From Candidatus Marinacidobacterales bacterium (GTDB lineage Bacteria; Acidobacteriota; Vicinamibacteria; Marinacidobacterales; SMYC01), in NCBI GenBank assembly GCA_965262245.1, contig OZ253507.1, forward strand, positions 2,268,690-2,332,689: DNA of 64,000 nucleotides. The letters run 5' to 3'. Below the pieces are notes generated by a model. It was not told the DNA's origin and made no database searches. It saw only the letters and a list, made by a program, of their open reading frames with translations. Both the position numbers and the translations under genes were made by a program. How positions within the stretch are numbered: position 1 is the first letter of the stretch; the number at the start of each line of letters is the position of its first letter. This document shows, piece after piece, positions 1-31,681 of the stretch.

Positions 1-475
1 GAACGCTGGTCGCGGGCCGGTCGGCAAAACTGCCGTCGTGGGCGCGAAGGACCGCGCGACCAACCGCGTGAGTGCCGCCGTAGTCACGAGCACGGACGGC
101 GATACGCTCAAGAGATTCGTTACTGAGCGGGCCGAGGTTGGAGCGAAGGTGTACACCGACGACCACGGCGGCTATGTTGGGCTGCCGAACCACGAGACGG
201 TCCGCCACTCCGTTGCAGAGTATGTAAAAGGACAGGCGCACACGAACGGGATCGAGTCCTTCTGGTCGATGCTCAAGCGGGCGCACAAAGGCACGTTTCA
301 CAAGCTTTCTCCGAAGCATTTGCAGAGGTACGTAGACGAGTTCGCCGGCAAACACAACATGCGCGACTCAGGAACGCTTGCGCAAATGCGCGACACTGTC
401 GCTCGGATGGTCGGTCGCAACCTCCTCTATCGGGATCTCATCGCGGACAACGGCCTTAGCTCGATGCGGTCGTAG
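1..475 (+). CDS. IS1595-family (ISXO2-like) transposase, C-terminal part; 5' end cut by window edge
   Basis: The 145-aa translation aligns closely with the C-terminal half of the full IS1595-type transposase at 27064..27987 (VYTDDHGGY...HSV.EYV.GQAHTNGIESFW..LKR...GTFH...KHL.RY..EF). Basis: sequence comparison within the window. Confidence 0.8.
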   Translation, partial: NAGRGPVGKTAVVGAKDRATNRVSAAVVTSTDGDTLKRFVTERAEVGAKVYTDDHGGYVGLPNHETVRHSVAEYVKGQAHTNGIESFWSMLKRAHKGTFHKLSPKHLQRYVDEFAGKHNMRDSGTLAQMRDTVARMVGRNLLYRDLIADNGLSSMRS

Positions 476-581
476 TGGACGGAAAAGGGCGCGGGCCAGA
501 GTCTCGGGCGTCGCGCCTACTAGATCGCGCTTCGGGTCTAACATCGGCTTCATCGTTTCCTCCTAATCGAATTGGATGCCT

Positions 582-680
582 GCGTTTTGAAGTTCTGCGT
601 TTTGAAGTTCTGCGTTTTGAAGTTCTGCGTTTTGAAGTTCTGCGTTTTGAAGTTCTGCGTTTTGAAGTTCTGCGTTTTGG
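582..680. repeat. 15-bp direct tandem repeat GCGTTTTGAAGTTCT x6.5
   Basis: Six perfect copies plus one partial copy are seen directly in the sequence, immediately 3' of the IS1595 transposase fragment. The overlapping ORFs 475..753 and 572..796 (LRFEVLRFEV...) are translation artefacts of the repeat. Confidence 0.95.
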
Positions 681-683
681 GCT

Positions 684-953
684 TCACGACTTTTTCCAAG
701 ACGCCCGTGCCTTCTTTAACTCACGATGCTTTGCGAGTGGTGCAATTTTTTGAAAAAAGACAAACCAGTCTTTCGGCCAGGCTTCAAACTGGCTAGTTGT
801 CATTCTTCCTGCATCGATCAAGGGTGTTGGGATTTTCAATTGATCAAGTTCGTACTGTAAATCTAGGATTAACGCAAACCTTTCTGGCTGGAGGGGATTG
901 CTATTTATTAGTTTTGCCGCTTCGTCTCGACACCTTACAATCTCTGGATGCAA
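684..953 (-). CDS. Hypothetical small protein in a low-GC (~42%) segment; TTG start, no recognisable domain
   Basis: 89-aa ORF in an AT-rich island (about 780..1130) that contrasts with the ~62% GC surroundings. It has a non-ATG start and could be non-coding. Confidence 0.25.
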   Translation of the reverse strand: MHPEIVRCRDEAAKLINSNPLQPERFALILDLQYELDQLKIPTPLIDAGRMTTSQFEAWPKDWFVFFQKIAPLAKHRELKKARASWKKS

Positions 954-1193
954 CCTAGAAAATTGTACCGCAGGGCCTCAGCCCGTTTATCCATTTCAAA
1001 TTTGTCAAGATAAGCATCAATGTGCAAAACGTAAGGATGGCAGCGAATTCTGGCGCACCGAGTTCAAGATTCATCGTTAGTCCGTCTTTGTAAGCCCAAC
1101 GGACCAGGGCAAAGATGTCTCCGGTAAAGAATGCTGAGTTCCAAGCTAATTTCGCCTTCCGCACCGCCCGAGAATGTCATGAATGCGCGCGCG

Positions 1194-2980
1194 TCAAGTA
1201 GTCTTTGTAATTCCCACTTTTTTCCCGTCCAACCATGTTGCAATCGTGCGCGCGTGATTATCGTGGACGATAGAGACGCGTTGCCACTTGTCCTTCACAA
1301 ACGGTCTGTCGTTGGACGGCGCTCTACTGAGCCATCGTTCCCCTCTGATTTCGATTTTTGTCCACAATGTGTAACCAAGGATCCAATCGTATTGTTGAAC
1401 TTGTATTCGAATGGGACCGGCGCGGACAATGTCGTACAGATTGGGGCTTGGACGCGCCTTCATGCGAAAACTGACCGTGAAGGCGTGACCGAGAACAACG
1501 GCCGGCTTACACTCGAAGCGAAGTTCGGTCTTGCCGTTCAGGTGAAGCGCCCTGCCATGTGGCCCGTCGATGTAAACGCCCGTATCTTGCGCAGGAGCTT
1601 TTGAGCAAGGGCCTCGGCCGTCGAGCGCGTCTTCGAATGCGAAGGCGATCAACGGTCCATCGTCGGGTTGCGTGGGGCGCGGGAGGGCGGTCAAGCGAGC
1701 CAGCTCCTTGATTGCTATAGGCCGTTTGTAGTTGCGAGTCTTTGAGTCGCCGAGAAACGCGCGGATCGTCGAAAGATAAACGCCTGCCTGTGGTCCGGTG
1801 GTTGACATCGCGTTGAAAGAAGCAAGCGAGAGATCCGTATCCTTGCTCTCGTTGAAGAAGTGTACGAGCCACGTCCTCAATCTTGGGTCTTTTTGCCCGA
1901 GCGTCACAATCAAGTCGACCGTAGGTTCTGCGACCGAGTTTTCACCGTCATATTGTGCAGCCGTGAAAAGATGGCCTAGTGCCGGATGCGCTGCTTCGCC
2001 CATGGCTGTCAGAGCCTCGAGCGCGTCGTGGCGAGGGTTACCTTTCTCCGGCAGACGGATTCCTGCAACAATTTCACCCAAGCGTTCGGCCGCGGGCGCC
2101 GCTGCCGGCCCAAGACCCTGGAGCGCGTGAATAACAGCCAAAGTGTGCTCGCCAGGCTCCAGCAACGGGAGCAGCAGCGGCATCGCGGCAGCGGCATCGC
2201 GGCAGCGGCTTTGGGACCCACGTGATAAAGGGCGCCGATCGCTCTCTTGGTATGTTTGTTCTGTTCTATCCAACGCATATACATGGGCACAGCCGGTGCT
2301 GCGTGCGCTTTGCAGTCATGCAGCAAATCGACAAGCTTGCGAGTAAAGTCGTAATTTTCGTTGGGATCCCACGACGTTTCATCGCGCTCGAAGAGTGCCA
2401 GCACGTCGTGCACCGTGGCCGCGGGGTCACCACGAACTTCATGAAGCGCGGCGATCGTTCTTGCTGCATGGCTTCTTGACGTGGTCTGGAGGAGGGGCTC
2501 GATGTCTGCGACCAAGGTCCGGCCTTTTTCTTTCAAGTTCGAAGCGACGAGCAAAGCTGCGTCGCGCCGTTCTTGGTGATGCCCGTCGAGGTAAGTGCGG
2601 CATAGGGGGATGGCGATGGCAGGGTCGAGGCTCAACTCGGTCAATACGTTACTGAAGCGCTCGCGATGGTGGTCTTGTTCCGCATCGAGCGCCTCGAACA
2701 AAAGGGGCGCGTATTGGTTCGATCCAGCTGGATAACTTGGTAACGTGCCAGCGGCTGCCCACTTGAGATTGTCGTCTCGTAATCCGGCCAAGATGAGGGG
2801 AATAGCAATTTCGTCCTCAATGCCAGCGGGCTTTGAGATATTCCAAGGCAAAGTATTGTGTCTTCCAGTCGGAATGTTCAGCGGCTCGCTCGAACGAGTG
2901 GCCGAGCTCGTGGCTTGCTGGACCAAAGTTGCCATCTTTGAGATACGCACGTGCTCGTTGTCGTACGAGCTCGTGCTCAT
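1194..2980 (-). pseudogene. HEAT-repeat + LamG/concanavalin-like domain protein, frameshifted by a 14-bp tandem duplication; may extend into ORF 955..1164
   Basis: ORF 2009..2980 (HEAT-like repeats PLILAGLRDD..., ...GPKAAAAMPL) and ORF 1194..2273 (AAAAMPLLLPLLEP... then a LamG-like C-terminus W..DGKKVG) are collinear in different frames. Removing one copy of the duplicated 14-mer CAGCGGCATCGCGG (2176..2189 = 2190..2203) restores a single frame. ORF 955..1164 (FFTGDIFALVRW) may continue the LamG domain after another shift. Confidence 0.6.
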
Positions 2981-3473
2981 CCAATACGAAGGGCATTATC
3001 CGGTGGTCGAATGCTTCTTTGTGCGTGAGCTCGATTGGGGGGAGAATGGTGCCTCGTCTGATCACGCCCAGGCGGTCGATCGCAGCTGCGCGTGCGCTGC
3101 CCTTGTTGGTTTCGGCGTAACGGATCACATAGTCGGCCATCTGTTCAGCGGTGAGATCGTCGGCGACGTGCCATATTTCGGCGGGTGTATAGGCGTCGTA
3201 GCCATTGAGGAGTTTTACCCCGCAAGCCATGACCATCCAGATCCCTGCCGCGCCGTACATGGCTGCTTGCAGGAGGATTTTGCCCAGGCCCGCGCTTACT
3301 GCTTGTCGCGCGCCGCGCTCGTCTGTGTCGGTGAGAAGAAAAACATATTCGAGATCGCGCGCGTTCCGGGGTGCGCTCCCCATCGCCAAACGTTTGACTT
3401 TGTTGCTCGCCGATCGCGGGCGGACCAGTGGTTTGACTACGAGACGCTCGGATCCCACTGCATCGGAGGACAC
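2817..3473 (-). CDS. Putative Zn-dependent peptidase (HExxH motif HELGH; DUF2268-like); start uncertain
   Basis: The 218-aa ORF has an HELGHSFE metalloprotease motif near the C-terminus. It overlaps the annotated start of the downstream HEAT-repeat ORF by ~160 bp, so one of the two starts is wrong or a further frameshift exists. Confidence 0.4.
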   Translation of the reverse strand: MSSDAVGSERLVVKPLVRPRSASNKVKRLAMGSAPRNARDLEYVFLLTDTDERGARQAVSAGLGKILLQAAMYGAAGIWMVMACGVKLLNGYDAYTPAEIWHVADDLTAEQMADYVIRYAETNKGSARAAAIDRLGVIRRGTILPPIELTHKEAFDHRIMPFVLDEHELVRQRARAYLKDGNFGPASHELGHSFERAAEHSDWKTQYFALEYLKARWH

Positions 3474-4560: not shown

Positions 4561-4972
4561 TAAAGAAGACCCACCTTTCGGGGTGAATCATCTGTTGCTG
4601 CAGGTGCTGGGCGCGGCGCCGAATCAGCCACTCGTGGAAGCGCTTGCGCTGGTCCGGATGCAGCAGCTCGCCGATGTCTGCATGCACTTGCCGCATGGCG
4701 TCCTGCACTTCAGGGCGAAGCTGCTCCCACTTGAGTTGCACCATATGCTGGCGCTCGGCCGGGATTCTGTGGATCTGCGCCACTTGATCCTCGTCGAGCT
4801 CGAGAAGCTCTTGCAGCTCGGCCATGGCGGCCTCGTGCTCGTCCGCCGCCGACATCGTTGTCAGCGGACGGGCCACAAAATGGCGTTCATACGCGACGCC
4901 GGCGAGCACGCCGAGCGCAAAGATGAACAGCAGTACACCACCGGCACTAACGCGCGGACCCATCATGCTCAT
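4406..4972 (-). CDS. Periplasmic Spy/CpxP-like (LTXXQ-type) protein with N-terminal TM/signal
   Basis: N-terminal hydrophobic segment followed by a helical, charge-rich region with repeated ELQELLELDEDQ...LHPDQRKRF motifs typical of the CpxP/Spy family. The C-terminal ~50 aa of the ORF overlap the ADOP start and are probably not real. Confidence 0.4.
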   Translation of the reverse strand: MSMMGPRVSAGGVLLFIFALGVLAGVAYERHFVARPLTTMSAADEHEAAMAELQELLELDEDQVAQIHRIPAERQHMVQLKWEQLRPEVQDAMRQVHADIGELLHPDQRKRFHEWLIRRRAQHLQQQMIHPERWVFFNEKLQGGSPVAAQNTRSHVSGDRNSGDRHQRQHRDFQCRRRRALSPARLWR

Positions 4973-5808: not shown

Positions 5809-6236
5809 GAGGACGCGCCATCATTTCGCGAAAGGGTTCCTCGAGCGTCTCACGCTGGGCGGCCGTTAATTCGAGCCGTTCGGCGATAGCGGTGAAGTGG
5901 TCCGGTGGGTCGGCAGAGTGGCCGTGCTGCGCCTCCCCGACTCCAACCGCGAAGACGGCGGCTAGCAACACGGTCATCATGGCGCGATGGTGTGTCCTCA
6001 TGGGTCAACTCCTCTTACATTTCGGGTGTGCTCCTCCTTTGGAGCACCCTCTTCCACACTGTACTCGCGAGAGCGCGGATCCGTTGACACCGACCCGCGA
6101 CTTTCTTCGATCTCCCGCTCTGGTTGCTTTCGGTCTCCCAGGCCGCTAGATTTCCCTATTACCAAAGGTTACGAATGGCGCTCACTTCCGGAACACGCCT
6201 CGGCTCCTACGCGATCGTTGCGCCGATCCTCACCGC

Positions 6237-7303
6237 ATGAAGATCTATCGTCTCGAGCCCGGGGTCCAACACTACGCCTGGGGCAGCACGGAGTTCATCC
6301 CGGAGCTACTGGGTGTCGATAACGCCGACGGGCGACCCTACGCGGAGCTCTGGCTCGGTGCGCATCCCGACTTGCCGTCAAAAGTCTTGTTGGGAGACGA
6401 GAAGCGCCCGCTCGGCGAGATGATCTCGGGCGAGCTTCCTTATCTCATGAAGATCCTCTCGGCGGCCAAGCCGCTTTCGATACAAACGCACCCGAGTGAA
6501 TCCCGGGCTCGCGAAGGATTCGCGAGGGAGAATGCGGCCGGGATCCCGATCGACGCGCGCCATCGCAGCTATCGCGACCCTCATCACAAGCCCGAGCTTC
6601 TCTGCGCCCTCACCGATTTCTACGTACTCCGGGGCTTTCGTCCCAACCCGACGTCGTTCGGCGACGAGCCCCTGAACACGCTCTACGCGAAGCTGATGAC
6701 GATGTCTCGAGACGAGGTCGATGCGGAGCTCGGGCCGATCGTGGAGAGCCTTGGCGACGGTCACTACGGGAAGGAGGATCGTGAATATTGGGTCCTCCGC
6801 TGTCACGAAGCATATTCCGAGAAAGGTCACTACGATCGTGGTCTTTTTTCGATCTATCTCTTGAACTTGATCCACCTCGACGCGGGCGAAGCCATTTATC
6901 TCGATGCAGGCACGCTCCACGCCTACCTTGAGGGATCCGGCGTCGAGATCATGGCCAACTCGAACAACGTGTTGCGCGGCGGGCTGACGACCAAGCACGT
7001 CGACATCCCCGAGCTTCTTAACAATGTCACCTTTCGCGGAGAGGCGGCGCAGATCGTGAGGGCGTCGAAGCTCGGCCCGAGCGAGTGGGCCTATCATGCT
7101 CCGGCGAAGGAGTTCGAGCTCCGCCGCATCGAAGGCGGTTACGTCAATACCGGCGACCATGGTCCCGAGATCCTTTTCGTCACCGAAGGCGAAGGGACCG
7201 TGGAGGAGCATCTTGTTTCGAGAGGCCAAGCGCTCTTCGTGCCGGAGGGAGAGACGTATCAAGTGCGAGGCTCGCTGGTGCTATACAAAGCGACGGTGCC
7301 GCG

Positions 7304-20799: not shown

Positions 20800-22226
20800 A
20801 GGATATCCTGAATCTAGTTGAAATCGGTGAGTGACTCCCTTCAAGATCGTCGGTGTCAAAGCTGGCGATCAAAAAGAAAGGAGCCACCCGGTGAGAGCAG
20901 ATACGAAGAAGAGAAAGAATGCAACACAGATGCTGAGGGCGACGCAGGAGCAAGAGTGGTGGGCGGATCAAGTTGTGCATGTGATGCTGGAGGGCAAGCG
21001 AGCGCTGGACGCCGCGATGCTCGATGTCGGACGCCTGGTAGCTGAGACGCTCATGTACATGGAGCGCGAAGAGAGATCTGGGCCAGACTACCATCCTACG
21101 TCGTCCGGGCTTCGCAAATGGGCGAGTCAACGTGGGTCGATCTATGTCGGTGACCAGAAGCTCCCTGTCGAGCACCCTCGATTGCGGGGCCCGGAGGGTG
21201 AGGTCGGGCTGAGAACCTACGAGCAGCTCAAGAATCGCGGGGGCTTTTCGGAGGAACTCCTGTCGGAGGTGCTTCGGGGAATGTCTGCTCGCAAGTACGA
21301 AGAGACGGTGACGGCGGCAGGCAAGGCTTTCGGTGTGACGCCGAGCTCGGTGTCCCGCCATCTGGTCGAGGCGACGGCGAAGCAGCTGAAGCAGTTCCAG
21401 GAGCGCAGTCTCGAAGAGTTTCCGCTCTTCGCGATGTACCTAGACACGGTCCACCGCGGCGGTCAGGCGTTCGTGGTCGCGCTCGGCGTGGACCGTGAAG
21501 GGAAAAAGCTCCCCCTGGGCTTCTGGGAAGGGGCGACAGAGAACCACGAGATCTGCGAGGAATTGCTGGAAGAGTTGGAGCGACGGGGGTTAAAGCTCTC
21601 CAAACGGATCCTCTGGGTAACCGATGGTGGCGGGGGGATCATCAAGGCGCTCAAAGACCGATACGGTAAGAAGCTCATCCACCAGCGGTGTACTTTGCAC
21701 AAAGACCGCAACATCCAGCGCCACCTGCCCAAACGCTACCGCAAGCAGGCACACCACCTCTTCGCGACTGCCTTGGAGCAGAACAGCTACAAGGACGCGA
21801 AGAAGATGTTGCAGGAGTTCGAGCGCTGGCTTCGCGACATCAACGAGTCGGCGGCAGACTCACTCCTCGAGGCACTCGAGGAGGTGCTGATGCTCCACAA
21901 GTTGAAGGTCCCCGCTCTACTGCGCCAGAGCCTGCACTCGACGAATCCTATAGAGAGTATGTTCTCCATGGTTCGTAGTTGCGAGCGCAACATCAAACGC
22001 TACCGTAACAGCAAAATGCGCCAGCGATGGCTCGCCGCTGTGCTGCTGCACTGCGAACAACAGTTCAGACGAGTCAAGGGGCACGCATCCATCGACGTAG
22101 TGGTTGCGGCCATCGATGCGATCCAACGAGAGGACGAGATGCCTGAGGCCGCGTAAGGTCAGGGGCGTAGAGCTGGAAATGACCACGAGTCGCTTATGAT
22201 GGTTTCAACTAATTCCTTGACATCCT
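20800..22226 (+). mobile_element. IS256-family insertion sequence (~1.43 kb) with imperfect 25-bp IRs and a 9-10-bp target duplication
   Basis: IRL GGATATCCTGAATCTAGTTGAAATC (20801..20825); IRR reverse-complement GGATGTCAAGGAATTAGTTGAAACC (22201..22225). Flanking direct repeat CACCAAAATG at 20790..20799 and 22227..22236. Confidence 0.85.
20930..22156 (+). CDS. IS256-family (mutator-type) transposase
   Basis: Motifs FAMYLDTVHRGG, LWVTDGGGGIIKAL, QRCTLHKDRN, STNPIESMFSMVR. ~409 aa from ATG 20930; the ORF also has an upstream GTG at 20831. Confidence 0.85.
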   Translation: MLRATQEQEWWADQVVHVMLEGKRALDAAMLDVGRLVAETLMYMEREERSGPDYHPTSSGLRKWASQRGSIYVGDQKLPVEHPRLRGPEGEVGLRTYEQLKNRGGFSEELLSEVLRGMSARKYEETVTAAGKAFGVTPSSVSRHLVEATAKQLKQFQERSLEEFPLFAMYLDTVHRGGQAFVVALGVDREGKKLPLGFWEGATENHEICEELLEELERRGLKLSKRILWVTDGGGGIIKALKDRYGKKLIHQRCTLHKDRNIQRHLPKRYRKQAHHLFATALEQNSYKDAKKMLQEFERWLRDINESAADSLLEALEEVLMLHKLKVPALLRQSLHSTNPIESMFSMVRSCERNIKRYRNSKMRQRWLAAVLLHCEQQFRRVKGHASIDVVVAAIDAIQREDEMPEAA

Positions 22227-23620: not shown

Positions 23621-24922
23621 CTATACGGATCCCCCAAACGACCTCTCGAAGAGCGCTGTAATCGCCTGACGTCCTGACTCGGAGAGCTCCCGCGTCCCCG
23701 TTCCGGTGAAGCGAGTCTTTTGGATCGTCGGGGCGTCGACTTTCTCCCAGGTCGTAACACTCTCAGTCCACCGGTACCAGCTGTTCTTGGTCTGGTCGAA
23801 GACGTGAAGCCGCTTGTGGAAGTGGCGCGCAAGCTCGGCGCCCCAGCCGGTGCCGCCTTTGACGGTTTGATCCTCGACGATCTCACCGACGACGAAGACT
23901 TCGCCCGCCGTCGCGACCTGATGCCAGATGGTTTTCAGCAAGCGCTGGAACAGCTCGGTCTTTGGGAACGAACGATGAAGCTGCGCCTTGATGTAGGTTT
24001 CGCTGACGCTTCCCCGCTCGAGCTCGTCTTCGCTGAGCTCGACGATACCGCGTGTGCGCGCCGTGGCCCGGCCCGGATAGGAGTAATGAATCTCGTTCAT
24101 TCCCCATCTCTCCGCGGCCTCTCCGAACGCCGCCTCGCTTCCTTTGGCGCCTCCCGAGAGTAACGTGTACGAGGATGACGGGAGCTTGCCGAGAGCGCTC
24201 GACGCATCATCGCCAGCGATCCGCATCGTGTCCGTGTCGAGATGGAGGTGCGTGTCTTCGAGCTCTGTGCAGTCGTGGTCCTTGAGCAAGCGCACCGAAG
24301 CGTGGGTGCCTTCGGGCTCTAGAAAGATGGCGACGTCGATCACGTCCGCGTAAGCGTCGCAAGGCGGCAAGATGCTCGTCGGCTTTTCAGGCGTGCCCTC
24401 GCGGTGAGTTTGGGCGGTCATCCAAAGCTCGGCATCGAGCCTCTTTGCCGCGAGCTTGAAAGCTCCGAGCTCGGCCGCGCGCTCGACGACCGTGCCGCAT
24501 TCCCAATCGAAGCCGTCGATCAAGATGGCCTTGGGCGCGAAGCCGGCTTTGTCCGCGTAGAGGGAGAGCACGTCGTCGAGGCGCTCATGCGAGAACCCGT
24601 TATTGGCATAGGCCTGGATGATGCGGTTTGCGTTCACGAGCTGGCGCACTTGAGCGAGATTCTCGAACTCGGTGAGCTTTGCCAAGTCGTCGAACAGAGC
24701 GTCGTACCACGACTGTACATGATCGAGGTCTTGTCCGAGTGCTACATGGAGGACGGGACGCTCGCGCATCGCGTCATCGAGTCCAATTTGGACGAGGAAC
24801 GCAGTCTTGCCGACACCGGCGCGTGCCATCACGACGCCGAGCTTCCCCGCGCCCAAACCACCTTTGGTCGAGCTCTCCAGAATCCGGAGAGGGCTCTTTT
24901 CGTTGACTTGCTTTCGAAACAT
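23621..24922 (-). CDS. KaiC/RecA-superfamily ATPase fused to a C-terminal LOG/SLOG-like Rossmann domain
   Basis: N-terminal: Walker A VVMARAGVGKTAFLVQIG, Walker B AILIDGFD. C-terminal: LOG-family hallmarks LLSGGAKGSEAAFGEAAERWG (GGxxGxxxA...G), KGGTGWGAELARHFH (PGGxGTxEE-like) and HVFDQTKNSWYRW. The domain assignment is motif-level only. Confidence 0.5.
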   Translation of the reverse strand: MFRKQVNEKSPLRILESSTKGGLGAGKLGVVMARAGVGKTAFLVQIGLDDAMRERPVLHVALGQDLDHVQSWYDALFDDLAKLTEFENLAQVRQLVNANRIIQAYANNGFSHERLDDVLSLYADKAGFAPKAILIDGFDWECGTVVERAAELGAFKLAAKRLDAELWMTAQTHREGTPEKPTSILPPCDAYADVIDVAIFLEPEGTHASVRLLKDHDCTELEDTHLHLDTDTMRIAGDDASSALGKLPSSSYTLLSGGAKGSEAAFGEAAERWGMNEIHYSYPGRATARTRGIVELSEDELERGSVSETYIKAQLHRSFPKTELFQRLLKTIWHQVATAGEVFVVGEIVEDQTVKGGTGWGAELARHFHKRLHVFDQTKNSWYRWTESVTTWEKVDAPTIQKTRFTGTGTRELSESGRQAITALFERSFGGSV

Positions 24923-25041: not shown

Positions 25042-25559
25042 CTAGCGTGCCATCGCTTTTTCTTTTTCTTGCTTTGCCACCAGCTCTTCTTCGATGGCCC
25101 CGGGAACCGGCAAATAGCGTGAGAACTCCATGGTGAAATCGGCTTTGCCTTGCGTTGCGGAACGGAGCGTCGTGGCGTAGCCGAACATCTCGGCCAGCGG
25201 AACCTCGGATTCCGTGATGGTGGTGCCCCCATTCTCCTGCTGCCCGATGATCGCGCCGCGGCGCTGCATGAGCGTCGTCAAGACACCGCTCGCATGATCG
25301 GTGGGGGCTTCGACGACGACCCGCATGATGGGCTCGAGCACTTTTGGCTGGCTCCGGTCATAGGCTTCGCGCCACGCCCCGCGCGCCGCTTGCTGGAACG
25401 CGACGTCGGACGAGTCTACCGTGTGGTGGGCGCCATCGTTGATCACGACACGCGCGTTGACAACCGGTGCTCCGATCTTTCGGCCTTTCTCGAGCATCGA
25501 CTTGAAGCCTTTCTCCACCGCCGAGATGAACTGGCGCGGGATGACGCCGCCTTTGATAT
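25042..25559 (-). pseudogene. fusA: EF-G (fusA-like) C-terminal portion (domains IV-V), separated from the N-terminal portion by the IS1595 R-M element
   Basis: Reading from the TSD: IKGGVIPRQFISAVEKGFKSMLEKG...DGAHHTVDSSDVAFQQAARGAW...AEMFGYATTLRSATQGKADFTMEFSRYLPVP matches EF-G domains IV-V. It continues the frame broken at 28048. Confidence 0.85.
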
Positions 25560-25589
25560 GGGAATTATATATTTGACGCCACCAGCCTA

Positions 25590-26282
25590 CTAGAGACGTT
25601 CCTTCTTGAGGTACAGCCTACAGACCGAGGAAGGTGCCACGCGAAACTTGGTGCCGTGGTTTCTGAGCCCTGGGCTCCCTGGCTTGGCTTCCCTAGCATC
25701 GAAGTCAATCACGATCTCGCCTCGCAGAATCTCATTCACGAAGTCGGCCAGGTGAAAGGTCTCGTAGGCGTCGGCCTGACGGAAGCGCACCTTTTGTCCG
25801 TCCTTCTCCCCCTTGACCATGATGAGCCGTCGTAGTTTGGATCCCGCTACCGCCATCAACTCCTCATGGGACCAATACGGGATGAGCCCATTGCCTCGAA
25901 TCGGTCGGACAACGATCTGGCCTCCACTGTCTTCCACTCGGAAGCGATCGCTCTTGCCCTTGATCGTGTGCCGGAAACTCATTCTCCCCTTTGCGTCTTT
26001 CCAGCCGTGCTTGCGAACCATGTAGCGGAGGATGGTTGGTGGGCCAGTTGGCTCCTTGTGAAATAGCGTCAAGAGATTGGTTCTCCGTGTGAACCACTTC
26101 AACTCCCAGCCTACAGAGTCGGGAATATCCACAGAGCCCGTTGTGACGCCTAGCAAGCTCTCCAGGAACATCCCAGGGGCACCAGTTCCTCCGAACTTCT
26201 CCGGCAGGTCATACCAGCCAGCGGAGATAACCCCACGTAACCGCTCAAATAGTTCGCGCTTTGTGCGCGGCGGGGAAGTCAC
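25590..26282 (-). CDS. MutH/Sau3AI-family Type II restriction endonuclease (predicted GATC-type)
   Basis: Matches to E. coli MutH: GAPGMFLESLLGVTTGSVDIPDSVGWELKW (MutH [32 protein letters not shown]), KLRRLIMVKGE, and C-terminal RLYLKKERL (MutH GFYLKKNF). GTG start overlaps the MTase stop (GTGA). Confidence 0.7.
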   Translation of the reverse strand: MTSPPRTKRELFERLRGVISAGWYDLPEKFGGTGAPGMFLESLLGVTTGSVDIPDSVGWELKWFTRRTNLLTLFHKEPTGPPTILRYMVRKHGWKDAKGRMSFRHTIKGKSDRFRVEDSGGQIVVRPIRGNGLIPYWSHEELMAVAGSKLRRLIMVKGEKDGQKVRFRQADAYETFHLADFVNEILRGEIVIDFDAREAKPGSPGLRNHGTKFRVAPSSVCRLYLKKERL

Positions 26283-27067
26283 TGCACAATCCGACGAACG
26301 GCGGAGAGCCGTTCTCTGGCCAGCTTGCAGTATTCCTCGGAGATATCGAACCCGATCCACTTCCGTTTCTCTGCCTCGGCCGCAATCGCCGTAGATCCGG
26401 AGCCCATGAACGGGTCAAGAACGATCTTGCCTTTCGTCGATGCGATACAGCGTTGGGCCAATTCAATGGGGAAGGGTGCTGGGTGTGGGTTGTTGTTCTC
26501 TTGTGGAATGCTCCAGATGTCTCCGGCGGCGTTCGCCTTTGGCACCAGCTTAAAATCTGGTTTGGCGATTAGGTAGATAACCTCGTAGGTAGGCAGGAAA
26601 TAGCCTGGATTGAAATTGATACCTCCCTTGCGTTGCCAAATGACGATCTGCCGGACGGGGAAGCCTTCCATGATATCAGCCCTGTCTTGGAGTAGCCCGC
26701 CCTGGATGCGCCACTTGTGGTTGTAGAAAATGGCTCCATCTTTGCGCAGCACGCGCATCATCGCCTTCAAGCACTTCTTCTGCCACTCGACATAATCATC
26801 ATGCGGCATGGCGTCACCGTTGGAAGCGTAGCCCTTGATCAACGCGGCTTTTGGCCACTTCCCACCGCTTCCGTTTTTGAGACCGTTCCCCGTGCTGTTC
26901 TTGATGTTGTAGGGCGGACTGGTGACGATCGCATCTACCGATAACGCGGGCAGTTTGGCCATGAGTTTGAGGCAATCGCCAGGATGCACCTTGTCGAGCC
27001 ACGGCTCCATCAAGTGCGGAGCAGTGCGCGTGACGGCCTCAGTTATGAGCTGGCTAAAGGTTGTCAT
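26279..27067 (-). CDS. DNA methyltransferase, N6-adenine/N4-cytosine type (beta class; motif IV SPPY before motif I FxGxG)
   Basis: DAIVTSPPY (motif IV), IVLDPFMGSGSTAIAAE (motif I), N4/N6 methylase fold. ATG 27065..27067 overlaps the transposase TGA (ATGA). Confidence 0.85.
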   Translation of the reverse strand: MTTFSQLITEAVTRTAPHLMEPWLDKVHPGDCLKLMAKLPALSVDAIVTSPPYNIKNSTGNGLKNGSGGKWPKAALIKGYASNGDAMPHDDYVEWQKKCLKAMMRVLRKDGAIFYNHKWRIQGGLLQDRADIMEGFPVRQIVIWQRKGGINFNPGYFLPTYEVIYLIAKPDFKLVPKANAAGDIWSIPQENNNPHPAPFPIELAQRCIASTKGKIVLDPFMGSGSTAIAAEAEKRKWIGFDISEEYCKLARERLSAVRRIVQ

Positions 27068-27987
27068 CGAATCAGATCCGAATAGGTCAGACGAAGGCCG
27101 GACGATGCGCCTAGCAAGGTGTCTACTCTTTCGCCGCCCTTGATCTTCCCAAGGTTGAATCGCGCCGAGAATTCGGCGAGATAACGGTGCAGGTGTTTCC
27201 AAGTGAAGTGGTGAAAGGTGCCGATGTAGCCGCGTTTCAGTAGCGCCCAGAAGGATTCTATCCCGTTAGTATGCGCTTGCCCGCGCACGTACTCGCCCAC
27301 AGAGTGGCGGACGCTCTCATGGGAGTAGAGGCGATCTAGACCGAGATAAGCGCTGTGATCGTCCGTGTAGAGAACGGAACCAGCCGCGACATTGGATTGG
27401 ACAAAACCATGAAGCACCATCTGGCTCGTGTTGGGGATGGCTTTTACCTTCACCTTCCCCGCGCGCGAGCGGGCACCGGCAACTGGCTGTTTACCTACGG
27501 GGCCGCGACCCTTGATCTTCTGGCGACGCTTATCGGCGTGCATGTTCCGCGCCTTGCCGCCAATGAACGTCTCATCGACTTCGACGATCCCATCAAACGG
27601 TCCTCCGTACGAGTCCATTTGATCTAGGACTTCTCGGAGCCGACCCAGCATAAACCACGCCGTCTTTTGCGTTACGCCTATCTCTCGGGCCAATTGAGTA
27701 GACGGGATACCCTTTCTGTTGGAAGTGATCAACCATGCCGCGACAAACCATTTACGGAGCGGGAGACGGCTTTCCTCGAAGATCGTCCCCTTTCGGACTG
27801 AGAACTCCTGGCGACAATCGGCGCACTTGTAACCGCCTCGACGGACGTTGTAGAACTTGCGCGTGGAAACGCACCAAGGGCAAACGATACCTTTGGGCCA
27901 GCGCTGGCGCTCCAAGTGCTCGATGCAGCTTTTCTCGGTTGAGAAGGCTTCGCGTAGTGCGTATAGGCTGTCGTAGGTAAGTTCCAT
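27064..27987 (-). CDS. IS1595-family transposase (ISXO2-like, N-terminal zinc ribbon + DDE)
   Basis: 307 aa: zinc ribbon CPWC...CADC, DDE core EVDETFIGG...VLYTDDHSAYLGL...HSVGEYVRGQAHTNGIESFWALLKR. The start is 60 bp inside the right IR. Confidence 0.9.
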   Translation of the reverse strand: MELTYDSLYALREAFSTEKSCIEHLERQRWPKGIVCPWCVSTRKFYNVRRGGYKCADCRQEFSVRKGTIFEESRLPLRKWFVAAWLITSNRKGIPSTQLAREIGVTQKTAWFMLGRLREVLDQMDSYGGPFDGIVEVDETFIGGKARNMHADKRRQKIKGRGPVGKQPVAGARSRAGKVKVKAIPNTSQMVLHGFVQSNVAAGSVLYTDDHSAYLGLDRLYSHESVRHSVGEYVRGQAHTNGIESFWALLKRGYIGTFHHFTWKHLHRYLAEFSARFNLGKIKGGERVDTLLGASSGLRLTYSDLIR

Positions 27988-28047
27988 GCCCTATCTCCTA
28001 CCACCACTATAGCCTGTTTAGCTGGTGGCGTCAAATATATAATTCCC

Positions 28048-29676
28048 TTTGATATTGTCGACGAACTCGAAGTCACTATCGGTGTTCGGCTCCAGATAGC
28101 CGGCCACGCGACCATATTGGCCCGAACCACCGGTTTGCTTCTTGTGGACGTAGTCGAAAAAGACTTGTTTGCCGAGGGTCTCCCGATACGCGACCTGAGG
28201 CGGCGACACTTCGACTTCGACATTGTATTCGCGCTTCATCCGCTCGATATAGACCTCGAGCTGAAGCTCGCCCATGCCGTGGATGACGGTCTCTCCCGAT
28301 TCGGGATCCGCGCCCGCTTTGAAGCTCGGGTCTCTTTCGTAAACCGCTGCAGAGCCTTCGTCATGTTGACTTGCGATTTGTTGTCGACGGGCTTGACGGA
28401 CAGCGAGATCACCGGCTCAGGAACGTGGATCGACGTCATCGCTAATTTGCGCTTGCCGTCGGTGAAGGTATCGCCGGAGCTGCAATCGAGACCGAAGATC
28501 GCGGCTATATCGCCGGGGCCGGCGTCTTCGATCTCCTCCATCTCGTCAGCGTGCATTCTAACGAGCCGGCCGACTTTTGTCTGCTTCCCCGTGCGCGTAT
28601 TCGTGACGAACAAGTCACGGTCGAGATACCCTTGATAGACGCGCACATAAGTGAGCTGTCCGTAGGCGGCCGTCTTCGAGCTTGAAAGCGAGCGCGACGA
28701 TTCCTTTGTCCGGACTCGGATCGAGCGGGATTCTAGCTTCGTCCTTGCTCGTGAAGTCGATGGCCTCGTTCTTGATGTCGGGAGGGCTCGGGAGGTATTG
28801 GACCACGGCGTCCAGAAGAGGCTGGACGCCTTTGTTCTTGTAGGCCGAGCCGACGAGCACCGGGGTCATTTGGAGTGCGAGGGTCCCTTCGCGCACGGCC
28901 CGATAGATCTGCTCTTCGGTGACTTGCTCTTCGAGGATCGCTTCCATGAGCTCATCGGAGAACATCGACACCGCATCGAGCATCTCTTCGCGAAACGCCG
29001 AGGCTTTCTCCTCGAGCTCGGTGGGGATCGCTTTCTCGACGACCCTCTCCCCGTTCTCGCCCTCGAAGAAGAGAGCTTTCATGCGGATGAGGTCCACGAC
29101 GCCTTTGAAAGCGTCCTCGAGGCCGATGGGGATTTGGAGCAGTACAGGGTTGTGGCCGAGCTTCTCGCGGAGTTGATCGCGCACGCGCACCGGGTCCGTG
29201 CCCACGCGATCGCACTTGTTGACGAAGGCGATGCGCGGCACGTGGTAGCGGTTCATCTGCCGGTCCACCGTATAGGACTGGCTCTGAACGCCCGCGACCG
29301 AGCGCAGGACGAGCACGGCGCCGTCGAGGACGGCGAGGCTCCGCTCCACCTCGATCGTGAAATCGACGTGCCCTGGAGTGTCGATGATGTTCACGTGATG
29401 GCCGAGCCAGCTGCAATGGGTCGCGGCGCTCGCGATGGTGATGCCGCGCTCGCGCTCGCGCTCCATCGAGTCCATCTTCGCACCGACGCCGTCTTTGCCT
29501 TTGACGTCGTGAATGGCGTGAACGCGGTCCGTGTAAAAGAGAATCCGCTCGGTCAGCGTTGTCTTGCCGCTGTCTATGTGAGCGGAAATCCCGATATTTC
29601 GGATGGTGTTCAGATCTTTGATCACCTTCTTACCTCGTTTGAAACGGGTGACAGGCCAGACCTCAACAACACGCAC
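28048..29676 (-). pseudogene. fusA: EF-G (fusA-like) N-terminal portion (G domain, domains II-III, start of IV), with two additional internal frameshifts
   Basis: G-domain motifs [27 protein letters not shown]. Domain [10 protein letters not shown]...AGDIAAIFGL in a second frame (shift at the C-run about 28663..28671). FEFVDNIK in a third frame ends at the TSD. ORFs 28615..29676, 28236..28646 and 28018..28275. Confidence 0.85.
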
Positions 29677-29868: not shown

Positions 29869-31681
29869 ATGCTCCAACCGGTGCTGAGACGATTAGTTTT
29901 TTGGGGGCTCGCCGTCGCTTGGGGGTCGACGGCTTTTGCGCAGATCGAGCTTCCGACCCCCGCGTCCCATTACGAGGATTACGACCCCGAAAAAGCGGCT
30001 CAGACCCTCATGCTGCAGCTCGCCGTGCGGGTCCCAGAAGCCCGCCGCGCGCGGGCCATGGAGCTATTCGAGCGCGCAAAAGCCGGAGACCCGCACGTGC
30101 TCACGGTCGCCGAGGCACGGGAGCTGCTGGAATCGGCGGATTGGACCGATTTTCGTCCCGATCTGTTGCGACTCTTGCTGCATGGCTCGAACGTTCTCGG
30201 CGTAGTGCCGACCGATTATGCGCACTGGACGCCGCTCGTTCACGACGCGCTCTTGTTGTTCCTCGACCAACTGAGCGAAGAGCGGCTCATCGAACGGGTC
30301 GTCGCTCAAGCGAACTTGCCGCGGGATGCGAGCCGCGGCGCGCGAGCGCTCGCGTTCATTGTCAATACGCCGAGCCTCCAGAAACTCGCGCAAATCCTCG
30401 CGAGAAACCAGGGCATCGACGCGGATTTCCGCGCCGCGCTCCAGACGGTGGAGAACGGGCTCGAGACCGCGCAGTATGACGCCGTCTTCGCGCAAATCGA
30501 GAGCGAGCTGAGTGCTTCGGTGTGGAAACAGTACGAGCTCGAGCTCGACGATACTCTGCTGGGGGGAGGCAAGCGTCGGCGCCGTTGTTGCTGCAACGTT
30601 CAAAGATCCCGAAACCGGAGAGACGGAGCGCGCCGCGTGCAAGGTCTTGAAACCCTACGCGGTATCGGCGCTCGCGGAAGATTTGGTGATCATCGATCAC
30701 GTGCTTCTCTTCCTCGAGGAAAATGCGGAGCTCTACGATCTCGGCGCGACACCGCTCGTCGAGATCTTCTTGGAGATTCGCCAGGCGCTGTCGCGGGAGG
30801 TACGGGTCAAGGATGAGCAGCAGAATCTCGCGCGTGCGCACGTCTACTACGCCGACCAGCCGAAAGTCCTCGTCCCCGCGCTCTACCCGTTCTCGACCGA
30901 AAACCTCACGTGCATGGAGCTCGTTCGAGGCGTCAAGATCACCGACGCCTATATCGGCGACGGCGAAAAAAGGGCCAAGCTCGCCCGCCGGCTGAGCGAC
31001 GCCCTGATGTACGACGTCTTGTTCTCGCCCCATGACACCGCGCTCTTTCACGGAGACCCGCACGCGGGCAACGTGTTCCATGTCGAGGAAGGTGGCGAGG
31101 ACCCGTTTCGCATTGCCCTCATCGATTGGGGACTCGCGGCCGAGTTCAATCGTCGGGAGCGGGAAAAGATGGTGCAGCTGATGCTTGGTCTCTCATTGCG
31201 CCATGCGAAGCGCCTCGCGAACAATGTCGACGTTCTCATCGAGTGGGAGCCAGAGGGTCCGGAGGACATCGCCGCGATGAAAGCGCGCATGAAAGAGCTT
31301 CTCGCGGAGGAGAGCGCCGAAGGGATGTTCGCGCTTCTCGACAAGCTCATCGCGCGTCTCGCTCGGGAAGGCTACTCCCTGCGCTTCGACGCGACGATGT
31401 TCATCAAATCGCAGCTGACGGTCTCCGGGATCCTGGCGGAGCTCGATCCTGAATTCGAACAGGACGAATATGTGATGGGGCGTATGGCGAGCCAGGTCAC
31501 GAGCGAGCTCGGGAAGCGGCTTTTGCGCACGGTCTATTTTCCGAAGTGGAACTCTCACGACTATCCGAGCATGATGTCCAACGAGGACGTCAAAGACGTC
31601 CAGTGTCAGAAGATTGGACGCGGCTTCAAAGCGTTCGGAAAAGCGATCTGGAAGGGCGTCACCTTCCAATGGCTGTTCTAG
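29869..31681 (+). CDS. ABC1/UbiB-family atypical kinase with N-terminal signal-like segment; +1 frameshift in a G6 run
   Basis: ORF 29869.. ends its sensible sequence at ...ELELDDTLLG. ORF 30512.. continues as EASVGAVVAATF..., then HGDPHAGNVF, IDWGLAAEF (ABC1 kinase motifs). Deleting one G of GGGGGG (30561..30566) restores the frame. Confidence 0.7.

Follow-up and report, generated by a model that had tools for sequence, protein, structure and literature searches.

Do the transposase, methyltransferase and endonuclease genes that interrupt an EF-G gene in a Candidatus Marinacidobacterales bacterium form one mobile element, or did restriction-modification (R-M) genes settle next to an insertion sequence (IS)? 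We addressed this question in a 64,000-nt stretch of contig OZ253507.1, hereafter called the window, in which the interrupting element occupies positions 25560-28047. The analysis makes it very probable that this 2,488-bp element is an autonomous IS1595-family transporter IS (tIS), which carries a complete Type IIP R-M pair and inserted in EF-G. Besides the window, we used another assembly of the lineage that bears the IS (L001, which is ERZ25068832 contig_255 and is on record from 2 samples), four sister-strain contigs carrying the empty site (L086-L089), and a survey of the element family comprising 85 loci, namely L001 as the window's own locus, four close relatives (L002-L005) and 80 GTDB genome loci. 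For the loci of the relatives, flanks of 10 kb were examined, and for the source genome the 64-kb window.

A single insertion of 2,488 bp in an EF-G gene

The element and the two parts of the gene that it separates are laid out as follows.

25552-25559, no strand: left copy of the target-site duplication (TSD), TTTGATAT, read directly
25560-25586, plus strand: IRL, the 27-bp terminal inverted repeat on the endonuclease side, a perfect complement of 28021-28047
25590-26282, minus strand: predicted Type II restriction endonuclease of the MvaI/BcnI family, 230 amino acids (aa), GTG start (Pfam and PDB matches)
26279-27067, minus strand: predicted beta-class DNA methyltransferase with an SPPY motif, probably of N4-cytosine type, 262 aa (Pfam and solved relatives)
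27064-27987, minus strand: predicted IS1595-family DDE transposase with an N-terminal zinc ribbon, 307 aa (Pfam and NCBIfam)
28006-28034, minus strand: promoter-like site TTGACG-17-TATAGT, followed by a GGAGA sequence, the putative ribosome-binding site, and the transposase ATG
28021-28047, minus strand: IRR, the 27-bp terminal inverted repeat on the transposase side, pairing with IRL
28048-28055, no strand: right copy of the TSD, TTTGATAT, read directly
25042-25551, minus strand: 3' part of the interrupted EF-G gene (domains IV-V; Pfam EFG_IV and EFG_C on the matching L001 gene call)
28056-29625, minus strand: 5' part of the interrupted EF-G gene (codons 1 to ~523), with two frameshifts and five substitutions

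The two terminal repeats, GGGAATTATATATTTGACGCCACCAGC on the plus strand at one end and on the minus strand at the other, are complementary at 27 of 27 positions, and no other match to this sequence exists in the window when up to 3 mismatches are allowed (0 in 100 shuffles). TTTGATAT stands directly outside both of them as an exact 8-bp duplication. Three minus-strand open reading frames (ORFs) take up ~96% of the 2,488 bp; the transposase stop overlaps the methyltransferase start in an ATGA at 27064-27067, and the methyltransferase stop overlaps the GTG start of the endonuclease in a GTGA at 26279-26282. The GC content of the element (0.56) lies below that of its flanks (0.605), which would fit a foreign origin.

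The four sister-strain contigs, obtained from related samples, encode an intact EF-G of 695 aa (protein P0121, which scores 950 bits against the EF-G equivalog TIGR00484, with a cut-off of 659). Their gene order is that of the window (ABC1 kinase, EF-G, 433-aa ORF, aminotransferase), they align to the window at 99.3-99.9% identity on either side of the element, and they hold a single ATATCAAA (gene strand) at the spot where the window has the element and a second copy. These contigs are a true empty site, and the inserted segment is the whole 2,488 bp. An R-M insertion separate from that of the IS and merely neighbouring it is ruled out, as the empty site shows one 2,488-bp insert. Once the element and one TSD copy are removed, the EF-G frame runs on unbroken across the junction, and after repair of the two frameshifts it encodes 695 aa, of which 692 are identical to P0121; this EF-G is also 95% identical to a protein named by NCBI from an Acidobacteria metagenome-assembled genome (MAG), a match on which the host's identity as an acidobacterium rests. 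A sequence-only reading of this DNA had already described the perfect repeats, the exact duplication, the two overlaps, an EF-G frame continuous across the duplication and R-M genes that are no separate neighbouring insertion; all of these were found again, and in the relatives lacking the element the two EF-G halves are joined in frame.

The three encoded proteins

The transposase matches the Pfam families DDE_Tnp_IS1595 (PF12762, E = 1.9e-42) and Zn_ribbon_IS1595 (PF12760, E = 1.6e-10) as well as NCBIfam transpos_IS1595 (NF033547, 1.1e-57, 195 bits against a cut-off of 75). Residues C36, C39, C55 and C58 and residues D138, D209, E244 and K251 are kept in at least 95% of 64 relatives. Judged by its translation, the protein thus combines the zinc ribbon with a DDE_Tnp_IS1595 domain, which mark the IS1595 family, and it was as a member of this family that the sequence-only reading had named it. 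An N-terminal zinc ribbon is expected in all IS1595-family groups except IS1016. The terminus GGGAATTAT and the D-D-E-K7 spacing (E244-K251) would fit the ISNwi1 consensus, 'ggnnatTAT / DDEK', and the element may belong to the ISNwi1 or 'ISNwi1+' subgroup of ISfinder. The founding paper on the IS1595 family is that of Siguier, Gagnevin and Chandler in 2009.

The methyltransferase matches Pfam N6_N4_Mtase (E = 3.8e-41), its translation contains VTSPPYN, which includes the SPPY motif, and its best solved relatives are annotated as 'DNA cytosine-N4 methyltransferase' (8s9n/8s9m, E = 1e-35). It is probably of N4-cytosine type, and its linkage to the endonuclease gene suggests that it is the cognate partner of that enzyme.

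The endonuclease covers positions 3-227 of the 227 positions of Pfam MvaI_BcnI (PF15515, E = 4.6e-24) and matches R.MvaI (8e-11) and R.BcnI (1e-7) in PDB, with the PD..ExK stretch aligned: its 'PD..wElK' stands opposite 'PD..IEIK' in the alignment with R.MvaI and R.BcnI. Automatic gene callers begin this gene at an internal ATG, giving 193 aa. Since the 37 codons upstream of that ATG lie within the Pfam model and are conserved in relatives, whose proteins are 230-238 aa long, the GTG overlapping the methyltransferase stop is likely the true start, giving 230 aa. The MvaI_BcnI endonuclease and the adjacent methyltransferase would form a complete Type II R-M pair of predicted activity.

Transposase and R-M genes recur together at unrelated sites

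The three closest homologues of the transposase (95%, 86% and 84% identity) lie on separate contigs at unrelated sites, and in each case the transposase gene is followed by genes for the same 262-aa methyltransferase and the same endonuclease between near-identical terminal repeats. Two of them have the TSDs CAAAGAAG and TTTGCAAA, and in the remaining one the duplication has decayed to a 6/8 match. More distantly, the trio occurs in 5 of the 80 GTDB genome loci, the best GTDB transposase match being 65% identical; identities below are given in the order transposase, methyltransferase and endonuclease.

Caldilineaceae MAG: 65/68/67%, TSD ATAGTTTT
Deltaproteobacterial MAG: 62/71/57%, TSD CTAAAGAG
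Halieaceae MAG (L008): 60/67/43%, no clear TSD
Flavipsychrobacter: 48/64/42%, TSD TTTTTTTG
Verrucomicrobiales MAG: 45/70/40%, TSD ATAAGTAG

All five JGI metagenome loci with a relative of the endonuclease show linkage to the methyltransferase, to the transposase where the sequence allows, or to a terminal repeat, and one of them is complete, with TSD TTTTTTAT. The three-gene unit has inserted independently at 7 or more further sites, and a perfect 8-bp duplication of its own marks every one of these; the total of at least 8 such sites is indirect evidence of transposition. The taxa that hold the trio are Acidobacteriota, Chloroflexota, Delta- and Gammaproteobacteria, Bacteroidota and Verrucomicrobiota, at least 6 phyla. 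For 12 of the best 120 endonuclease relatives, the longest contig has the same size as that of one of the best 120 transposase relatives, and the family probably has hundreds of members.

Against L002, L004 and L005, the transposase has a ratio of non-synonymous to synonymous divergence (dN/dS) of 0.08-0.10 and the methyltransferase one of 0.08-0.12; for the endonuclease it is 0.06-0.09 against L004 and L005, and dN = 0 against L002. These values show purifying selection on all three genes. Because the trio recurs at other sites and its genes are under such selection, we consider the R-M pair to be genuine cargo that transposes with the IS. The sequence-only reading had proposed a complete Type II R-M pair as cargo within the IS, a view with which the family matches, the empty site and the further insertions agree.

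Synonymous divergence (dS) falls along the element, from 0.26 in the transposase gene to 0.078 in the methyltransferase gene and 0.006 in the endonuclease gene between the window and L002 (4941-7431), and from 0.93 to 0.67 and 0.31 between the window and L004 (4940-7423); this gradient points to related elements having recombined, or to a swapped cargo end. In a neighbour-joining tree, L009 and L022 fall outside the main clade of seven, but the tree is too crude to decide whether the R-M cassette was captured independently by two transposase lineages. In PLSDB plasmids, a tblastn search with the transposase gave only matches of <48% identity, labelled 'IS1595 family transposase', and the two contexts examined showed no R-M cargo and no subgroup name.

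The interrupted EF-G gene appears to be decaying

The four intact EF-G alleles are identical to one another in the coding region, and the window allele differs from them at seven places. Two, which the sequence-only reading had missed, are indels (position 28666 has an additional C, and a G is lacking at 28333), three are non-synonymous substitutions at conserved residues (L to R at 29459, C to R at 29304 and A to T at 29199) and two are synonymous (29146 and 28330). A change was counted as lineage-specific if both the window and L001 have it and L087-L089 lack it; 7 such changes fall in EF-G (2.09 kb) and 6 in the flanks (~7.8 kb; binomial P = 0.0096). Because of this enrichment, the EF-G copy appears to have been decaying since the insertion.

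Two claims of the sequence-only reading do not hold here. Precise excision had been expected to restore fusA; it would not do so, because the allele also has the two frameshifts and the three non-synonymous changes. The perfect repeats and TSD had been read as signs of a recent hop; they are a weak sign of recency because they form a 70-bp target in which only ~0.2 changes would be expected at the rate of the disrupted gene, and the insertion is not demonstrably recent.

Could the EF-G frameshifts be purely sequencing error? The adjoining ABC1/UbiB-type kinase gene (29869-31681) is split near 30566 by an extra G in a GGGGGG run; this frameshift is confined to the window lineage (in the sister assemblies, gene calls vary between 504 and 603 aa) and is probably a long-read homopolymer error, which cautions on indels in the window, and the L001 assembly carries extra indels. 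Against such an origin, substitutions are enriched in the same EF-G gene, and the five of them are harder to explain as errors than the two indels are. Sequencing error as the whole cause is disfavoured overall.

How does the lineage tolerate the loss? The principal fusA gene of bacteria sits in the str operon, in the order rpsL-rpsG-fusA-tuf. The EF-G gene studied here lies outside such an operon, in the four sister strains as well as in the window, and is adjoined by the ABC1 kinase gene and the 433-aa ORF. No other EF-G-like gene was found within the 64-kb window; the lineage survives, and a second EF-G gene is therefore implied elsewhere in the roughly 10-Mb genome.

Proposed transposition, expression and specificity

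The DDE transposase, with its zinc ribbon and its D138-D209-E244-K251 residues, would recognise the 27-bp repeats and insert the unit with an 8-bp staggered cut, usually at AT-rich 8-mers. TTGACG-17-TATAGT at 28034-28006 is the sole sigma-70-like match on the coding strand inside the element, and its -35 hexamer lies within IRR; no terminator-like site was found on the coding strand inside the element. The trio would form one operon driven from this promoter in the transposase-proximal repeat, and the arrangement is consistent with co-transcription and translational coupling. Because the element shares the orientation of EF-G, whose truncated frame stops nine codons into IRR, read-through from the EF-G promoter could add transcription. 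The element encodes no controller protein. In a naive cell, the order transposase-methyltransferase-endonuclease, the 4-bp overlap and the GTG start of the endonuclease may cause the methylase to appear before the endonuclease and in excess over it. The ATGA and GTGA overlaps are kept in L002, L004 and L005.

The cargo would consist of an N4-cytosine-type methyltransferase followed by a monomeric endonuclease of the MvaI/BcnI family. MvaI cuts CC^WGG and BcnI cuts CC^SGG, and the target of the R-M pair is likely a CCNGG-type site. CCSGG occurs 0, 1, 0 and 1 times in the window element and the three relatives closest to it, with an expectation per element of ~9 from composition and 2.6-4.4 from a Markov estimate, hence a total of 2 observed versus ~35 or ~14, respectively. 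CCWGG is at or above expectation in these four elements. The pattern gives a hint of BcnI-like CCSGG specificity in this sub-clade.

The partnership may benefit both sides. The R-M pair would pay for the IS by restricting phage and would stabilise it through post-segregational killing of cells that lose the element, the transposase would give the R-M pair mobility between replicons, and the EF-G copy would have been left to decay after the insertion.

Weighing the autonomous tIS against other explanations

Several points weigh against an autonomous, currently active tIS that lives from an R-M cargo. No further copy of the element was found in the window or in the exact-match index. The same R-M pair also occurs without the transposase or with its remnants: L101 has a methyltransferase-endonuclease pair without trace of an IS; L099/L100 hold only residues 134-306 of a 5'-truncated transposase, with IRR, beside the R-M pair; and L102 has the R-M pair with a 40-aa transposase remnant and IRR. 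Because the pair is found in L101, L099 and L102 without an intact transposase, it does not need the IS. Translational coupling is not family-wide, because distant members have short intergenic gaps in place of the overlaps. The site-avoidance signal comes from four related elements with small counts, and its CCSGG/CCWGG pattern is reversed in some distant members. The two EF-G indels could be long-read assembly errors. Finally, the activity and specificity of the R-M pair, the operon structure and the addiction role are all predictions from the DNA.

Taken together, the single copy and the truncated relatives raise the question of whether the element is immobile or dying. It would then have arrived once, its transposase would be inactive here, the stranded R-M pair would be kept by addiction or defence, and the perfect repeats would reflect a small mutational target. 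The insertion is indeed old enough for 7 lineage-specific EF-G changes, and L099 and L102 have met the same fate. We nevertheless hold this explanation to be rather unlikely, as the transposase ORF is full-length with all zinc-ribbon and DDE-K residues present, both repeats are perfect, and the dN/dS of the transposase against its relatives is ~0.1. The decayed loci fit delivery by the IS, after which the transposase was lost and the R-M pair kept. All but one of the endonuclease relatives of at least 50% identity with enough flank are IS-linked or have IS remnants. The pair in L102 is flanked by a direct repeat of 107 nt (2983-3089 and 4732-4838, 95% identical) that takes in the promoter and 5' end of the downstream gene, an arrangement similar to one that is known from R-M systems as 'insertion with long target duplication'.

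A further explanation is that the pair serves the transposon directly rather than defence or addiction, by nicking for target cleavage or repair, or by epigenetic control of the transposase. MvaI and BcnI work as MutH-related monomers that nick the two strands one after the other, which makes the idea conceivable, and the cargo stays linked to the transposase down to 45-65% transposase identity. It is nonetheless improbable: the pair is kept without a transposase in L101, quite different R-M types occupy the same slot in sister elements, which fits interchangeable cargo, and the target duplications contain no CCNGG motif. Least credible of all is a chimeric join of IS-bearing reads with the EF-G locus during assembly or binning, for although this is a long-read metagenome assembly with residual indel errors, the junctions are the same to the base in L001, and the 8 bp that are single-copy at the empty site are exactly duplicated around the element, as transposition predicts.

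DNA methyltransferases and R-M systems in the wider IS1595 subgroup

The autonomous tIS described above has many relatives of similar build. The IRL terminus GGGAATTATATA is common to 65 of the 85 loci; repeat pairs with terminus GGGnnTTATATAC occur at 65/85, and 43 of these 65 have perfect, mostly AT-rich 8-bp duplications (the window locus counted). All but one or two of the delineated elements measure 1.8-5.8 kb and, because of this length, carry cargo. Copies with R-M cargo occur in metagenomes and GTDB genomes, and the only bare element is L049 (1,245 bp).

The cargo was surveyed by Pfam scans of 133 cargo ORFs from ~60 relatives. DNA methyltransferases account for 21 of the 133 (N6_N4_Mtase 11, EcoRI_methylase 3, C5 DNA_methylase 3, N6_Mtase 2, D12 1 and MT-A70 1), and the types found across sister elements also include Dam-like ones. 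Endonuclease ORFs are MvaI_BcnI (5, and 3 more outside the ORF filter), HNH (3) and RE_HaeIII (1); other ORFs match P63C (6), Bro-N (3) and the PemK toxin (2). By these domain assignments, no recognisable cargo is more frequent in this IS1595 subgroup than DNA methyltransferases and R-M systems. No published description of such a cargo bias was found in sources that did not cover ISfinder and TnPedia.

Individual cargo slots hold a C5 methyltransferase with a HaeIII-family endonuclease (L032, 5921-7923), an EcoRI-like methyltransferase with a GmrSD_N-HNH protein (L030, 6112-8221), a 1,094-aa Type IIG-like protein (L073, 5915-9199), an N6 methyltransferase with a Type I S-subunit homologue (L055, 1321-4114), and an N6_N4 methyltransferase fused to an Mrr-like nuclease domain (L053, 5901-7589). 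One clade of ~2.0-2.7 kb carries a single gene of 320-350 aa with a P63C domain in six elements (L012, L018, L019, L023, L048 and L051, at ~5900-6900) or a Bro-N domain in three (L010, L021 and L029); both domains are typical of phage proteins. Two elements, L040 (6841-8073) and L080 (6648-7916), are themselves interrupted, one by an ISL3-family transposase gene and the other by a group II intron reverse transcriptase/maturase.

A broader picture is possible, though we advance it tentatively and with more doubt than confidence: the element would belong to a large multi-phylum IS1595 lineage with a single cargo slot used mostly for DNA methyltransferases and complete R-M systems of diverse types, a sizeable part of the mobility of Type II R-M systems in environmental bacteria would be self-propelled, and the life cycle would lead from arrival through disruption of a host gene, tolerated thanks to addiction or defence, and transposase decay to a stranded R-M pair.

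Relation to known elements and significance

In the IS1595 family, a tIS is defined by a transposase, terminal repeats, an 8-bp duplication and passenger genes inside the repeats (PMC8101967, PMC3129680, bioRxiv 10.1101/2021.05.26.445724). The element described here shares all of these features, with a zinc-ribbon and DDE_Tnp_IS1595 transposase. The passengers named in reviews are transcription regulators and antibiotic-resistance genes (PMC11891212, PMC5704250), whereas our element carries a complete MvaI/BcnI-type R-M operon overlapping the transposase gene, a cargo unmentioned in those reviews. For example, tISCpe8 of Clostridium perfringens and MTnSag1 of Streptococcus agalactiae are IS1595-family elements with ~25-bp repeats, an 8-bp duplication and a single small cargo (PMC5704250); that cargo is a lincosamide-resistance gene with an oriT, which makes them mobilisable, and here it is an R-M pair.

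Close precedents are R-M genes with terminal inverted repeats, an 8-bp duplication and an empty site in a sister genome, reported by Furuta, Abe and Kobayashi in 2010 (NAR 38:2428; PMC2853133) in Xanthomonas oryzae and Neisseria gonorrhoeae. A transposase is missing from the Xanthomonas unit (PMC2853133), while the element here has an intact one. The Neisseria unit has 26-bp repeats, an 8-bp duplication and a COG3677 transposase-like gene, but its Type IIG gene is truncated and its transposase 'likely inactivated' (PMC2853133), in contrast to the intact Type IIP pair found here. Compared with these units, our element has many intact relatives and represents an autonomous version with a different R-M type. 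The concept itself is already known from IS1595-family tIS and the transposon-like R-M units of 2010, and the element is an intact autonomous case of it. Beyond those examples, no published description of an IS1595 element with R-M cargo was found, a weak claim given that ISfinder was not covered.

The R-M genes resemble MvaI/BcnI systems in that the endonuclease belongs to the same Pfam family with the catalytic stretch aligned and has an N4-cytosine-type partner; they differ in that this endonuclease is a distant relative of MvaI and BcnI (E ~1e-10 and 1e-7, respectively) and is carried inside an IS. Tn7-like and other larger transposons carry defence cargo as well, in 10-100 kb with a multi-protein transposition machinery and a variable cargo region. 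The present element likewise places defence genes on a DDE-transposase element, but in 2.5 kb, with a single transposase and one operon.

Movement of R-M systems between genomes has been argued mostly from indirect signs such as an unusual GC content, repeats on either side and mobility genes nearby. In the present case a vehicle that is intact, minimal and autonomous, with one transposase and one R-M operon between 27-bp ends, is caught together with its empty site, and its intact and decayed relatives lay out a likely life cycle. The element was able to become fixed inside a conserved translation-factor gene, which agrees with the view that an IS can outlast costly insertions if its cargo is addictive or defensive. 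It is small enough for synthesis and direct testing, and the cargo bias of the IS1595 subgroup towards R-M and methyltransferase modules may merit a systematic survey.

Other features of the neighbourhood

Directly downstream of EF-G, the 433-aa ORF (23621-24922) has no Pfam match on record and is kept in all sister strains. A second, different IS1595-family element occupies window positions 1-1215, cut by the window start; it comprises the C-terminal 145 aa of a transposase (38-475, plus strand) 47% identical to the one studied here, ~740 bp of possible cargo, and a family-type terminus, GGGAATTACAAAGAC (minus strand), ending at 1215. At 20800-22226, the window lineage and L001 have a 1.4-kb Transposase_mut (IS256-type) segment that L087-L089 lack. 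The sister strains have their own ISs nearby, namely IS66 in L086 and L088, a Y1 transposase in L087 and ISAZ013 in L089. The neighbourhood is highly IS-polymorphic among strains that are 99.3-99.9% identical.

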